Below, one piece after another: positions 1-4,128 of a DNA stretch of 4,128 bases. The first letter of the stretch is position 1, and the number at the start of each line of letters is the position of its first letter. The position numbers and the translations under genes were made by a program. The notes beneath the pieces are model-generated. The model was given only the letters and a program-made list of their open reading frames with translations, had not been told where the DNA came from and did no database searches. The stretch comes from Naegleria gruberi. Lineage: Eukaryota. The stretch is taken from NCBI GenBank assembly GCA_000004985.1, contig GG739197.1. One strand, written 5' to 3'.

Positions 1-209
1 TAATACTTTTTACATGTGGAAAGTGTTCTATCATCATGCTCCTCTCCGACGTGATAACTAGCCGTACCACAAGAATCAACAATGAAATCAACTTTTGCCT
101 TCTTTTCCTTTATCAAAGCCAACATGACAATCTCTGCCATTGGTGACCGACAAATATTTCCGAGACAAACAAAACATACAGAACAATTCTTCCCTGATTG
201 AGCTGACAT
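1..209 (-). CDS. LTP1: Low-molecular-weight phosphotyrosine protein phosphatase (LMW-PTP), N-terminal 69 codons; the rest of the gene runs off the left edge of the window
   Basis: Hand translation of the reverse complement from ATG at 207-209 gives MSAQSGKNCSVCFVCLGNICRSPMAEIVMLALIKEKKAKVDFIVDSCGTASYHVGEEHDDRTLSTCKKY. It contains the LMW-PTP catalytic P-loop V-C-L-G-N-I-C-R-S (CX5R-S) and the downstream D-S-x-G-T-x-x-Y-H-x-G motif. It also has a yeast-like A-rich context before the ATG (caatacataaaaaATG on the minus strand). It is missing from the ORF track only because no stop codon falls inside the window. Confidence 0.85.
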   Translation of the reverse strand, partial: MSAQSGKNCSVCFVCLGNICRSPMAEIVMLALIKEKKAKVDFIVDSCGTASYHVGEEHDDRTLSTCKKY

Positions 210-337
210 TTTTTATGTATTGTTTTTTCAATTTTCTTTGTTATATACAAAAGCAATTAGATAATATTGAAGGCAAGCCAAGTTTCGTCCTTTGCATTTT
301 GGATTTGTTTTGGAAATAGACATAGTTCGTTCCGTTA

Positions 338-358
338 GCATTGTTTTTGGCATTGTTT
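338..358 (-). promoter_or_regulatory. Direct repeat GCATTGTTT x2 (338-346 and 350-358): HMG-box / Rox1-type ATTGTT cores about 130-150 bp upstream of the LTP1-like ATG
   Basis: agcattgtttttggcattgtttaaag was read directly. YYYATTGTT is the core of the yeast Rox1/Rfg1 hypoxic-repressor site. The functional assignment is only an inference. Confidence 0.2.
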
Positions 359-480
359 AAAGAAATATAGAATAGTTTCAAAATCAAAATTTCACTCTCA
401 TTTATATTATATACAATCTTAGTATCTTTGAGTTTACAATTAATACTCTTAAATTACAATTTCAAAGCTGGATATCAAAA

Positions 481-795
481 TTATTGAATGGAACATTCCT
501 TCTTTTCACCTTCCTGAGGAGCAGTCTCTGATGAGGCTGCAGCAACATCGGATGCACCCTCAAACTCTCCAACTATATACTTTTGCATGTCACTCTTAGC
601 ACTACTTCCATGACCAGCATCATTGAAGGCCTTTGTGCCATCTTTACCAGCCCATTCGAGAATGACATCTTCACCACCCGGATGTTCATCCTTATACGTT
701 CCAAAGGCTACAACCTTTCCCGAGATAATAATCCAAGGATCTTGATGATTTGGACCATGTTCTTCAACTTCAGAGAGTGCAATGTTTCTCACCAT
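481..795 (-). CDS. Cytochrome b5-like heme-binding protein, 104 aa, soluble form with an acidic C-terminal tail and no hydrophobic membrane anchor
   Basis: ATG at 793-795 (minus strand) and TAA at 481-483. The product is MVRNIALSEVEEHGPNHQDPWIIISGKVVAFGTYKDEHPGGEDVILEWAGKDGTKAFNDAGHGSSA... It carries the cytochrome b5 signature HPGGE plus the second axial His in AGHG. It is close to the yeast CYB5 N-terminal pattern (EVxEHNGP..WIII.gKVYDv..FkDEHPGG). The C-terminus GASDVAAASSETAPQEGEKKECSIQ is polar and lacks any transmembrane segment. The context before the ATG is A-rich. Confidence 0.85.
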   Translation of the reverse strand: MVRNIALSEVEEHGPNHQDPWIIISGKVVAFGTYKDEHPGGEDVILEWAGKDGTKAFNDAGHGSSAKSDMQKYIVGEFEGASDVAAASSETAPQEGEKKECSIQ

Positions 796-992
796 TTTGT
801 ATGTTTCTATATTATTGTTGTTTTGTTTTTTTCAAATTGTTGTTTTACTGTCTTGTATCCAAAGCTGACAAATTTATTCTCCAAATAGATCTAAATGATG
901 AGGAGTATTGGGAGAATGGGGTAATATTGGATTCTGAATATGTACAAATGGGAGTTTTTTACTGGGAATAAGGACGTTAGAGATTCGAATCT

Positions 993-999
993 ATATAAT
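993..999 (-). promoter_or_regulatory. Candidate TATA box (TATATAA) about 200 bp upstream of the cytochrome b5 ATG
   Basis: ctatataatt is at 991-1000 and is the only canonical TATAWAW in the 796-1100 interval. The assignment rests on position alone. Confidence 0.2.
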
Positions 1000-1291
1000 T
1001 ATGTTGAAAATAATTACTGCTCTGATGGAATGGATAATGCATGTTATGAATTGATTAATAAATAGAAGAAGTTGTAATACAAGTACCAGAACAAACACTT
1101 GAATCTAAAGAGGACTCTCAAGTAAAGAAGCAAGGAAGAAAACGAAAGAATATATGAACTAACATTGTAAATAAACAATGAGTTGCTCTTTCGTCCTTTC
1201 TTGGAAAGGTTGGTTAAGTATTCAGAGTTCTTTAAAGATCTAAAACAGTCAGTAAAAGATGTTTAAAAATTAATACTTTTATTAATATCGT

Positions 1292-2101
1292 TCAATGTAG
1301 ATTTTCAAGTATCTCAAATAAAATCACTAAATTTGATCTGACTGAGAAATGCGGTATGTGGTTGCCAAATTTTTTGTAATAACTTGGCGGATTTTTCATT
1401 ATCCTTCTTTGGACATAAAATATAGTCTTCATTGAGTTCAAAGTGAGTCTCGTGCTTAACATATGTTCTGCAACTTCATTGATCTTCAACGTCTTGTCTT
1501 TCATACTTATAGCTCCGTTCAGAGATTCTCTAATATATTTTGATTCTTTGTTATTATAGTTGTTTTCCAAATGTGCAACAAGGTTTGTTTTAAATATCTC
1601 AGAACTATAATGAGTGTAAACAACTAAAATATCTTCTGGTTCAACAACTCCCATAATTAAATATCTAAAAGCTCTAGTTTGGGTATAGAACTCTGACTTA
1701 AATTTTGATTTGGCCTTCAGTGCCACACTTCTTTTATGTACAGCTGCAATTTGGACTTTATGGCTATTGTCATATTTAAACTCCCATCTCTTTGATATTT
1801 CATCAGTAGTGGTTCCAATGTATCTTAGAACTTCACCACCGAATCTAACAAAAGCACAGTAAATTATGTCATTACTCTTGTGCATATCAATTGCTTTTGC
1901 AAGTAAATTGAAATCCTTAATAATATTCTTGGGTTCTCGTTTCTCTTTTAACCAAGAAAACAATGGATTTGTAGTGGTGTTCAATTCACCAAGAGATTTG
2001 ATGAGGATGTTCAATTCTGGTTTGTTATCTTGACAATCCTTCGTCACTTTGTCAAAAGCAATTACTTTATCAGGATCCACTAATCTTGTAACTGATCGCA
2101 T
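1292..2101 (-). CDS. GIY-YIG superfamily nuclease-domain protein (T5orf172/MUG113-like core), 269 aa from the first in-frame ATG at 2099-2101. The ORF track extends to 2245 only because codon 1 there is TTG, which is not a eukaryotic start.
   Basis: This is a long uninterrupted minus-strand ORF with a TAA stop at 1292-1294. Track residues 126-230 (nt ~1556-1870) read DIIYCAFVRFGGEVLRYIGTTTDEISKRWEFKYDNSH...EPEDILVVYTHYSSEIFKTNLVAHLENNYN. That gives Tyr of 'IIY', then 12 residues, then 'YIG-T-T', then 'KRW' seven residues later, then an aromatic residue, then a Glu about 60 residues on and an Asn-rich 'ENNYN'. This is the spacing and residue set of the GIY-YIG catalytic core. Compare I-TevI, recalled from memory: GIYQIKNTLNNKVYVGSAKDFEKRWKRH ... 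ERENFWIKELNS..NGYN. The (K/R)-I-G-x-T-x-x-x-x-x-R-x-x-E shape is typical of the T5orf172/MUG113 subfamily that is widespread in fungi. No HMM or BLAST could be run. Confidence 0.5.
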   Translation of the reverse strand: MRSVTRLVDPDKVIAFDKVTKDCQDNKPELNILIKSLGELNTTTNPLFSWLKEKREPKNIIKDFNLLAKAIDMHKSNDIIYCAFVRFGGEVLRYIGTTTDEISKRWEFKYDNSHKVQIAAVHKRSVALKAKSKFKSEFYTQTRAFRYLIMGVVEPEDILVVYTHYSSEIFKTNLVAHLENNYNNKESKYIRESLNGAISMKDKTLKINEVAEHMLSTRLTLNSMKTIFYVQRRIMKNPPSYYKKFGNHIPHFSVRSNLVILFEILENLH

Positions 2102-2511
2102 GTAGTTCCCTCCTTTAATGGGATTCTTCTTGTAATGAATTGAGATGTTCTTCGTCAGATTTGAGAGTGAACTAGTATTGTTTAGAGAAAAAAAATGTCC
2201 CTTCTCCACGCCAAATAGACCAATTGAAGAACACCAACAAAGCAACCGAATATTTGCAAATGGCCAAGGTAAAAACTTTTCTATAGAATTTACATTTAAT
2301 GATGAATATACCCGCTAAATTATTTTGATGATAATTTTAACAATTTTTTCGTCAAATTTTAACGTATCAGATTGCAAAATTATGAAATAAAGTTTATTGA
2401 AAAATGTTAAAAATTGATGCTTAAAGCATAATAAAATCGTCAACAAGTGTTGGGAGAAAAATTCCAAATTAACGCGCAATTGACGTCAAGAATTATCGTC
2501 AATTCTTAATG

Positions 2512-2551
2512 ATTTATTATCAATTTTTGACGTCAAAAATTGATAATAAAT
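2512..2551. repeat. Perfect 40-bp palindrome (inverted repeat with no spacer) centred on the CRE/ATF octamer TGACGTCA (AatII site GACGTC)
   Basis: ATTTATTATCAATTTTTGAC|GTCAAAAATTGATAATAAAT was verified base by base. Position 2532+k is the complement of 2531-k for k=0..19, and the first mismatch is at k=20 (2511 g / 2552 t). Each arm contains AAAATTGATAATAAAT, which has GATAA and ATTGAT cores. Confidence 0.9.
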
Positions 2552-2571
2552 TGATAATGTTTTGTATCAAA

Positions 2572-2593
2572 TATTGATGAAAAAACATCAATA
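2572..2593. repeat. Hairpin-forming inverted repeat: 8-bp stem TATTGATG/CATCAATA around an A6 loop
   Basis: 2572-2579 tattgatg and 2586-2593 catcaata are exact reverse complements, with a loop aaaaaa at 2580-2585. It shares the ATTGAT core with the 40-bp palindrome arms. Confidence 0.8.
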
Positions 2594-2622
2594 ATTACGT
2601 CAAAAAATTCATAATAATTATT

Positions 2623-2635
2623 GTCAATTATTGAC
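2623..2635. repeat. 13-bp palindrome GTCAAT-t-ATTGAC
   Basis: 2623-2635 gtcaattattgac: the arms GTCAAT and ATTGAC are reverse complements around a single central T. It again combines the GTCAA and ATTGA cores seen throughout 2349-2640. Confidence 0.8.
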
Positions 2636-2970
2636 TAAATTCCAGCAATTATTTACTCCAAAATCTTGTAAAATTTCCAAGTTCCAAACTCATCTATTAT
2701 TAGATCCACTTCCATTCCAAATTTCAAACCGAAAAAAATATCTACACTCCTCATCCTCACTCCAACTGATGAAATATCACTCACCTCTTCAGTTACATTC
2801 AAAATTAATGATAATAAATCAAAATTACTTACATTGTTTTCTGTTCAAAATCTGTTGCTTGCATATAAATCGTGCTGTTTAGCACAAATTGAATTATAAC
2901 AAATTACCTAATTTCTTGTGATGAATAATTTTGATGATCCGTAGCAGGTAAAATCATATAATATAAAAAT

Positions 2971-3069
2971 AATACAACAAACCAATTTCGAAGAATAAAA
3001 TCTTTATAAATCCAACTAACAATAATTAAAAAATTAAGAAATTAAGAAATTTAAATACAACAAACCAAT
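2971..3069. repeat. 16-bp direct repeat AATACAACAAACCAAT present twice (2971-2986 and 3054-3069), each copy containing a CCAAT box
   Basis: An exact 16/16 match was read directly from the sequence, with 83 bp between starts. It lies in an A/C-rich tract that has no ORF. Confidence 0.7.
3031..3051. repeat. Short tandem repeat, 8-bp unit (ATTAAGAA), about 2.6 copies
   Basis: aaattaagaaattaagaaatt shows period-8 identity from 3031 to 3051, checked position by position. Confidence 0.6.
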
Positions 3070-3276
3070 AAACAATAAACTCCGCCAACAATTATTGTAT
3101 TAACAAATTAATGATACTATTCAATATTTAATGAGTGATCACTGATGATTTTAAATTGTAGTAAAAATAATGTTGTAGTACTAACCGACAGTTTTGTATG
3201 ATATGATGAGGGAGTTAATGTGTAGACATTTTTTTATTAAAAATAATTTCCGATTTAGTAACCCAACATTTTACAA

Positions 3277-3465
3277 TCAACATTCATCATCACTCATATC
3301 ATCAGTGGAATCCTCTTCAATGGTTTCTTCCTCACAAGAGGATGATCCAGAATCATTGTTTTCCTCTCTTTCTTTTCTCTTTTTTGAGGTGGTCTCCTCA
3401 AGTTCTGTCTTCTTCTTCTTCTTTACTGATTCATTTTGTTTTGCACCCTTCTGCAAATTCTGCAT
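3277..3465 (-). CDS. Possible small (62 aa) highly charged Lys/Glu/Ser/Asp-rich protein; it could equally be a low-complexity artefact
   Basis: It has a true ATG at 3463-3465 with caaaaATG context and TGA at 3277-3279. The product is MQNLQKGAKQNESVKKKKKTELEETTSKKRKEREENNDSGSSSCEEETIEEDSTDDMSDDEC, with a basic NLS-like stretch followed by an acidic Ser/Asp tail (CK2-like sites). It fully overlaps a plus-strand Ser-rich ORF (3194-3481) that looks less protein-like. Confidence 0.25.
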   Translation of the reverse strand: MQNLQKGAKQNESVKKKKKTELEETTSKKRKEREENNDSGSSSCEEETIEEDSTDDMSDDEC

Positions 3466-3588
3466 TTTTGAAACACTATAATGATTTAGTTGATGAGAAT
3501 GAAAGAATTAAGAAAGAATTGGCTAGATATAAACAGGCAGTCAAAATATGAATGAAATGATTAATCAAATGGTGAGCTGTTTAGATGA

Positions 3589-4117
3589 GTATCAAGATGT
3601 CTTTGCATAGGGAGACTCTATTGTGCATCAACCAAAGAAAATTCAAAATCTTTGAAACAAACTCGATACTCAATAAGAATACACCCTAAATATGATACAA
3701 TTAATCTTGCACCCTTTAGAGATATAGAGTATTGGAAAAATCACATTCAAAAAGGGAATTTTGATCAAGGGTTGAAATCAATTTCACCAATTTTGGATCA
3801 AGATTGGAATCCATCACCATCAGATATTTGTTGCTATGATTCAATGCATGTATTATATGAAGGAGTTTTCCAAGAAATGATGAAAATGATCCCTATTCAA
3901 TACTGGGAAAGATTTGACATTGTTTCTGAAACAAAAGTATCCATCATTCCTTCACAAGCATCCTAGAAAGACCACAAATGGCCAGATTTTGAACAGTCTA
4001 AAGGCAATTGAAATTTACATGATCTGTCATTATTATTTAGAGCTGTTTACGCATATCGAAGGATTTAAGGAAATAGAATCAAAGGTTGAAATATTCATAG
4101 ATTGCCTCTATAATTGA
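3589..4117 (+). pseudogene. Decayed transposase-like gene, possibly Transposase_21 / Tnp2 (CACTA, EnSpm, KDZ/Plavaka-type) family. It is an internal fragment with no ATG start, at least one frameshift near 3890-3966, and continues past the window end.
   Basis: Frame 1 is open from 3589 with no start codon; the track ORF at 3652 begins on TTG. It reads ...APFRDIEYWKNHIQKGNF...DICCYDSMHVLYEGVFQEMMKMI... Frame 2 is open from 3890 and reads ...SFLHKHPRKTTNGQILNSLKAIEIYMICHYYLELF... up to TGA at 4118. The EYWK ... D-x-M-H-x-x-x-E-G-V-x-x-x-M segment resembles the conserved (E)LPYWK ... LDVMHIEKNV block of Tnp2-family transposases as I recall it. The spacing differs and nothing was searched. Confidence 0.3.
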
Positions 4118-4128
4118 TAAGCTGACAG

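Follow-up and report, generated by a model that had tools for sequence, protein, structure and literature searches.

The DNA analyzed here, referred to below as the window, is one entire unplaced scaffold of 4,128 bp from the Naegleria gruberi NEG-M assembly. From position 2311 to the scaffold end it is best explained as a decayed copy, rearranged in its interior, of a multi-copy DNA transposon that has terminal inverted repeats (TIRs), which lies beside a separate host open reading frame (ORF); we give this reading a probability of roughly 0.6. According to this model, the element would begin with the terminus CCCGCTAAA at 2311, and the next ~290 bp would be its subterminal repeat region, in which eight CGTCAA half-sites in both orientations, some of them fused into TTGACGTCAA, are putative transposase-binding sites. 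The interior of the element would have decayed to low-complexity sequence, leaving as recognizable remains an inverted piece of a second gene (3452-3630) and a truncated, frameshifted piece of a transposase-like gene (3627-4128). That the scaffold ends at 4128 is probably due to the inability of the assembler to cross the repeat. The original prediction had combined the ORF and everything to its right into a single accessory island or composite element at 1292-4128. The transposon debris that it recognized is more extensive than claimed, probably comprising all of 2311-4128 and thus the palindromic region as well.

The right end of the window consists of two pieces of the repeat, both of which are found in contigs of a Naegleria-like ENA sample (L001 and L006), where the repeat pieces occur in differing contexts. 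The fragment of the second gene, 'gene A', at 3452-3630 (plus strand) is inverted with respect to its orientation in L001, contains stops and is 98.9% identical to L001 600-421. In tblastn it matches a 90-residue ORF of L001 with an E value of 3.75e-24, split across two frames. The transposase-like gene fragment at 3627-4128, likewise on the plus strand, is truncated at its 5' end, frameshifted and runs off the scaffold. It corresponds to approximately residues 400-566 of P0011, an intact protein of 766 residues to which it aligns by tblastn in two frames, such that about the first 400 codons are missing from the window copy. Positions 3627-3949 are 97.5% identical to L001 2810-3134 and positions 3948-4128 are 97.3% identical to L006 1133-1315; relative to the open copies, the window has lost 2 bp near 3918 and a single base pair each near 4095 and near 4105. 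Annotated fragments related to the repeat are present on N. gruberi scaffolds of 158,571, 508,457, 3,568 and 1,001,995 bp, four in addition to the window. Multiple dispersed copies, truncated ones included, are the pattern expected of a TIR DNA transposon. Of the pseudogenized transposase relic originally proposed, the truncated, frameshifted fragment of a multi-copy mobile element was confirmed, but the transposase label matches no curated family.

In both L001 (at 3134) and L006 (at 1133) the transposase-like gene is interrupted at one and the same nucleotide, which corresponds to window 3948-3949. At this break one contig runs into a BTB-domain gene and the other is preceded by fragments of a short-chain dehydrogenase and a kinase. 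The shared break may reflect a switch in the assembly, or else one insertion or inversion of which each contig shows one side. L001 also contains, some 1.9 kb away from its transposon copy, a 164-residue ORF (5003-5497) with a weak match to an HNH endonuclease (E = 0.032).

Such breaks bear on whether part of the arrangement in the window is an assembly artefact, the 4.1-kb Sanger scaffold being chimeric or collapsed at the repeat pieces, in which case their juxtaposition at 3627-3630 would not be real. The very small scaffold terminates within a repeat, the pieces of the repeat are joined in a relative orientation that is non-canonical, and the contigs of the ENA sample break at repeat-internal points as well (window 3948/3949). 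Nevertheless, the left 1,364 bp of the scaffold are independently reproduced, and rearrangement and truncation of copies are nothing unusual in old transposons. An artefact is considered highly improbable.

The organization of the complete element was deduced from P0011. A composite of the Naegleria pieces aligns with this protein end to end, with 34% identity. P0011 is accompanied by a divergent ORF of 429 residues on contigs of ~5.1-5.4 kb from three independent assemblies (L007, L008 and L009), the flanks of which belong to copies that differ or are chimeric. Only a comparison of the points at which the three contigs diverge revealed the termini: the contigs are colinear and then separate directly outside ...GGAGCGGG, and the opposite end carries the inverted CCCGCTCC. 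The element, intact and distantly related to the window copy, is thereby defined as ~4.9 kb long, with an imperfect 22-bp TIR starting CCCGCTCC. In L007 the ends read CCCGCTCCTCTGATTTCGACCT and CCCGCTCCTTTTTTTCGGCGGT, which establishes the presence of TIRs in this element; the window holds one end only. A generic inverted-repeat search found no clean TIR in L001, L007 or L008.

From the behavior of the element and from motifs seen by inspection, we infer that its protein of ~730-770 residues is a transposase. Candidates for the acidic residues of a DDE-type transposase with an RNase-H fold, namely D296, D376 and E637 in P0011, do not vary in A2; they were assigned by inspection only. Searches retrieved as relatives the N. 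gruberi fragments, the Naegleria-like ENA copies and one organism in metagenome assemblies, and none other; a scan of viral contigs for the transposase-like family yielded nothing and a scan of metagenomes only the already-known locus. Negative results of long queries in word-indexed searches need caution, since a composite query of 1,052 residues returned P0011 only and missed the near-identical P0002-P0004.

The putative transposon end in the window is represented by the sequence CCCGCTAAA at 2311-2319 (plus strand), which faces right and contains the sole CCCGCT of the window. The same 9-mer occurs at position 2029 of L006, on the other strand, 160 bp after the transposase stop and beside a CGTCAA cluster of L006's own; there, too, CCCGCT is found once. 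CCCGCT also starts both ends of the L007 element. The probability of a chance placement of the 9-mer terminus is, by our own estimate, ~1.5e-4. The sequences adjoining the termini have a similar architecture: in the window, the first TCGTCAA follows 39 nt on, after a run of T, and at the L007 ends a T-run is followed by TCGTCAT or TCGTGAT at offsets of 27 and 39, the latter at the right end. In addition, the L007 ends carry repeated (C/G)GTCAT, analogous to the CGTCAA sites of the window. Because of the 9-mer shared with L006, the CCCGCT at the L007 ends and the similar T-run/TCGTCA architecture, 2311-2640 is interpreted as the probable terminus, together with its subterminal repeats, of the transposon family to which 3452-4128 belongs.

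This presumed subterminal region (plus strand) is AT-rich, with a GC content of 23%, and contains all eight CGTCAA/TTGACG sites of the window. They fall within 2350-2603, at offsets of 39-287 relative to the terminus, and two are present in the form of the TTGACGTCAA palindrome. By chance 0.94 sites are expected, and none of 200 shuffled sequences reached eight. A perfect palindrome of 40 bp at 2512-2551, centered on TTGACGTCAA and situated inside a 47-bp tandem repeat of 2.1 copies (2479-2577), has arms of 20 nt, as compared with a mean of 6.6 and a maximum of 11 nt in shuffled sequences. The DNA fold z-score is -4.97. Neither in the palindromic region nor elsewhere in the gap at 2246-3451 did Rfam and tRNA scans reveal a match. 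The palindromes and repeats described in the original prediction are thus well beyond chance; the palindrome and the CGTCAA cluster of its 'palindromic control region' are statistically real, but a transposon end is a better reading of the region than 'control'.

A regulatory function was nonetheless weighed, since TGACGTCA is the canonical octamer of the cAMP response element (CRE). The CGTCAA/TGACGTCA cluster and the palindrome at 2350-2603 could form a CRE-like module, recognized by a host basic leucine zipper (bZIP) protein, in the promoter of the adjacent gene NAEGRDRAFT_54893, with the transposon restricted to 3452-4128. Like bZIP-bound CRE clusters, the window has several CGTCA half-sites and two exact copies of TGACGTCA upstream of a gene, the cluster lying 250-500 bp upstream of the ATG at 2101, and in L006 a downstream ORF likewise has three CGTCAA sites ~60-90 bp upstream of an ATG. 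Unlike in such clusters, the sites of the window lie just inside a transposon-type terminus and within a perfect 40-bp palindrome, an uncommon feature in promoters. The start of the cluster is 39 nt inward of the CCCGCTAAA terminus, which is shared with L006 and resembles both ends of L007, and no such cluster is present upstream of P0010, the only relative of the gene product, or in the other two spacers of the window. As the chief alternative reading of the motif cluster, a promoter module is regarded as unlikely.

Three tracts make up the window between the presumed terminus region and the gene fragments. A C-rich, G-poor tract at 2641-2900 (59 C versus 19 G on the plus strand), the strand-asymmetric tract noted originally, is devoid of recognizable coding, and an 83-residue ORF within it has no Pfam match. 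It is followed on the plus strand by an A-rich low-complexity spacer at 2901-3276, with 23% GC and (AATTAARA)n, and then by a T/C-rich low-complexity tract with (TTC)n at 3277-3451; low-complexity sequence was thus correctly predicted. In the A-rich tract, beside (AATTAARA)n, the 16-nt sequence AATACAACAAACCAAT is directly and exactly repeated at 2971-2986 and 3054-3069, 83 bp apart. On the minus strand, a 62-codon ORF rich in Lys, Glu, Ser and Asp (3277-3465) is probably not a gene; its exact protein is absent from a collection of 15 billion proteins. The longest stop-free stretches in 2246-3451 measure 56-110 codons and none of the ORFs therein that were compared with Pfam has a significant match (E values of 0.12 or worse). 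The proposed non-coding gap at 2246-3650 consequently holds for 2246-3451, which lacks a coding signal, but not for its right end, as 3452-3630 already belongs to a repeat gene fragment. The gap had also been called long for a compact, yeast-type genome. The source, however, is N. gruberi, with 16,620 genes of a mean length of 1,677 bp in 40.9 Mb (PMC9928731). The mean spacer derived from these figures is ~0.8 kb, so that the 1.2-kb gap, ~1.5 times as long, is only moderately long for this organism.

Several observations weigh against the assignment of 2311-4128 to a single transposon copy. Neither a target-site duplication (TSD) nor a second terminus is visible in the window, and the terminus match between the Naegleria copies extends over just 9 nt. 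In L006, a fourth CGTCAA site lies 51 bp outside the inferred terminus. Positions 2320-3451 have no significant similarity to the few accessible transposon copies, and the continuity from the terminus to the gene fragments is deduced, such that two separate remnants, with 2641-3451 as an unrelated spacer between them, could be present instead. 'Gene A' of L001 and the second ORF of L007 have no detectable similarity. Finally, the transposase-like protein is without a match in Pfam, NCBIfam or PDB, a 733-residue composite of it hits no Pfam family even at E ≤ 10, and the AlphaFold2 model of P0011, with a predicted local distance difference test (pLDDT) score of 35.7, is unusable. Window 2322-2413 weakly resembles L001 and window 2612-2685 weakly resembles L006; both similarities were discarded, as 4 and 9 of 100 shuffled sequences, respectively, reached them. 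The exact 16-mer AAAATTTCCAAGTTCC is shared by window 2670-2685 and L006 1919-1934, 50 bp after the L006 transposase stop; the similarity around it is not significant in the shuffle test.

The element was compared with known groups of transposons. The CMC/Transib group is defined by C(2)C and H(3-4)H motifs (PMC12730594). In the present family the C(2)C motif is provided by the invariant C394-x2-C397, but there is no conserved H(3-4)H, only CYDxMH, and the termini are CCC...GGG. Kolobok and piggyBac elements target TTAA, and piggyBac transposases contain the DDE_Tnp_1_7 domain. Kolobok elements end in 5'-RR..YY-3' (PMC9587614). The termini studied here are CC...GG, with flanks of ...ATATA/CCCGCT in the window and ...TACAG/CCCGCT in L007, and the protein has no Pfam match. 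On the grounds of termini and motifs, none of the three assignments was retained.

A closer resemblance is seen to cut-and-paste TIR transposons with subterminal transposase-binding repeats, such as En/Spm-CACTA and Ac/Ds. As in these, the family is multi-copy, has short TIRs and, over the first ~300 bp of the end, a short motif that recurs in both orientations, encodes a large transposase-like ORF together with a second ORF and leaves truncated, frameshifted copies scattered in the genome. It differs from them in its termini, which are 5'-CCCGCT...AGCGGG-3' rather than CACTA or CA..TG, and in its protein, which matches no Pfam transposase family. The repeat family thus appears unclassified by current protein libraries.

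The gene to the left of the transposon end, NAEGRDRAFT_54893 (EFC35481.1), is annotated on the minus strand at 1292-2101 as a 'predicted protein' of 269 residues. Its ATG at 2101 is 210 bp distant from the presumed transposon terminus at 2311, on the outer side, and that terminus points away from the gene. The frame is open to 2245, and the ORF at 1292-2245 (317 codons) is 100% identical to the annotated N. gruberi protein. It is certainly a real gene, because the probability that 317 codons stay open by chance is ~1.7e-11. The 48 codons upstream of the annotated ATG (2102-2245), which remain open with a chance probability of ~0.023, contain no in-frame ATG; an unannotated upstream exon or an alternative start is possible there. 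Among 1.84 billion representative proteins, P0010 is the sole relative, 41% identical over a core of 107 residues, which supports the earlier description of the ORF as lineage-restricted. The conserved core comprises residues 121-230 of the ORF and contains GIY-YIG-like motifs. P0010 possesses a transmembrane-like N-terminal segment, which is lacking in the window ORF. It is encoded on a 179-kb metagenome contig (L002) among F-box, WD40, Ank-BTB and DUF4116 genes, and two ORFs that follow it (L002 10001-10906 and 10912-12456) look like exons joined by a GTAAGT...AG intron. In view of these eukaryote-like neighbors and the intron-like sequence nearby, P0010 probably stems from another protist. 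Its contig has neither synteny with the window nor similar flanking motifs.

The original prediction regarded the ORF as nuclease-like. The ordered motifs of GIY-YIG nucleases are present in it (DIIYCAFVRFGGEVLRYIGTTTDEISKRWEFKYDNSH) and are conserved in P0010, a match of short motifs seen by inspection that falls short of proving homology. In the core, IIY is followed 12 residues on by RYIG and 9 residues further by KRW, then by a His and a hydrophobic strand, in the same order as in I-TevI-type GIY-YIG domains and with similar spacing, and secondary-structure prediction gives beta-beta-alpha. Sequence and profile searches with the ORF and P0010 found nothing significant in Pfam, PHROGs, NCBIfam or PDB (E ≤ 1-10). 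A custom hidden Markov model built from nine verified phage GIY-YIG domains, used with filters off, returned scores of just 5.1 and 0.5 bits. hhalign placed the ORF motifs in the canonical I-TevI register, yet with a P value of 0.0099 and a probability of 4%, and the Glu aligned with the catalytic E75 falls in a segment that is gapped in P0010, the only homologue. The AlphaFold2 model, derived from a two-sequence alignment, is unusable (pLDDT 31.7). The ORF departs from the GIY-YIG superfamily in that significant sequence, profile and structure support and a recognizable DNA-binding domain are wanting, and its homologue departs from it by the membrane-anchor-like N-terminus. Judged from sequence motifs, there is about one chance in three that the ORF adopts a GIY-YIG-type fold or is nuclease-like in nature. 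The nuclease label accordingly goes beyond a motif resemblance that no search made significant. The designation 'selfish' is equally unsupported, because the gene is single-copy; it has one known relative and no demonstrable nuclease domain.

The unity of 1292-4128 depends on this gene. An accessory island or composite element would consist of a selfish GIY-YIG-type nuclease gene with its control region, accompanied by transposon remains. It could draw on the motif series IIY...RYIG...KRW...H...FRYLIMG, which is in the canonical GIY-YIG register of I-TevI-type domains and is conserved in P0010, on the lineage restriction of the ORF, and on a second N. gruberi scaffold where an identical cytochrome b5 protein is annotated in the absence of a recognizable copy of the ORF. 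Arguing against it is the lack of a significant nuclease match by any method, the 4% hhalign probability included. The ORF is single-copy, and its sole relative lies among ordinary eukaryote-like genes, with dissimilar flanks and a transmembrane-like N-terminus. The inferred terminus has the ORF on its outer side and faces away from it. The junction between the cytochrome b5 gene and the ORF recurs in L004, a contig of the Naegleria-like ENA dataset ERZ929261, through window position 1364, with the last 24 codons of the ORF, its frame and its stop intact.

Nor is the island delimited as a unit. A repeat search of the window found no inverted or direct repeats bounding 1292-4128, and neither TIRs nor TSDs were detected around it. 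The best bounding candidate, 225-252 paired with 3621-3648, spans 28 nt of AT-rich sequence with a complementarity of 79%. The claimed change of character at 1292 is not accompanied by a compositional shift: the GC content amounts to 33.2% left of this position and 30.0% right of it, and that of the non-coding gap (26.7%) is like that of the two left-hand spacers (25.1% and 28.8%). The island was accordingly given up as very improbable. In a more plausible model, the ORF at 1292-2101 is, as far as can be judged from sequence comparison, most likely a separate, single-copy, species-restricted host gene.

A viral origin of the ORF and its surroundings was also considered, either as an integrated fragment of a giant virus or as a Rep gene of the circular Rep-encoding single-stranded DNA (CRESS) type with an origin-like palindrome. 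Palindromes do adjoin the gene, and residues 30-101 of the ORF weakly match the nuclease domain of a geminivirus Rep in PDB (E = 0.088). This match was rejected: it is insignificant, it does not preserve the HUH motif (PELNIL versus PHLHIL) and it lies mostly upstream of the annotated start of the ORF. Relatives of the ORF family are absent from 2.9 million viral contigs, and the contig of P0010 is eukaryote-like, with its GTAAGT...AG intron-like sequence and its F-box, WD40 and Ank-BTB genes. A viral fragment is scarcely credible.

The left part of the window is as originally described, compact and conserved, and both of its genes were found by Pfam. An LTP1-like low-molecular-weight phosphotyrosine phosphatase gene (3-209, minus strand; PF01451, E = 4.5e-16) is cut by the scaffold end, which leaves its 69 N-terminal codons, and a cytochrome b5 gene of 104 residues follows at 481-795 on the minus strand (PF00173, E = 9.4e-18). 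N. gruberi has two annotations of an identical cytochrome b5 protein, one on the window scaffold (EFC35480.1) and one on a scaffold of 312,004 bp (EFC39339.1). The left part is therefore duplicated or allelic, and the window scaffold may represent another haplotype or a segmental duplication. Colinearity with L004 extends over window 109-1364, with 100% identity over 109-209 and 99.2-100% elsewhere except in one indel-rich spacer. This spacer, between the phosphatase and cytochrome b5 genes (210-480), is 92% identical to L004 with 21 gapped positions; the spacer between cytochrome b5 and the ORF is far less variable (99.2%).

The wider significance of the two components can be stated only tentatively. 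It is rather improbable that the two-gene element represents an unclassified cut-and-paste lineage or superfamily and that, at the same time, the orphan protein and P0010 are the first members of a narrow GIY-YIG-like protist family. The former part of this proposal is based on the CCCGCT termini, the CGTCA[A/T] subterminal repeats and a protein of ~730-770 residues that lies outside Pfam, NCBIfam and PDB. What the window most likely presents is an ordinary case, an unplaced scaffold that ends in a decayed DNA transposon with an orphan gene next to it, and its biological consequence is small. For its annotation the organism is to be taken as Naegleria and not a yeast, the 'control region' is better understood as a transposon end and the nuclease label is unproven. 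According to a methylome study, no more than a small fraction of the N. gruberi repeats is assignable to known transposons (PMC12344493). The transposase-like protein described here escapes current domain libraries, and the CCCGCT terminus, the CGTCAA subterminal repeats and the two-gene layout provide a handle by which this Naegleria repeat family can be annotated.

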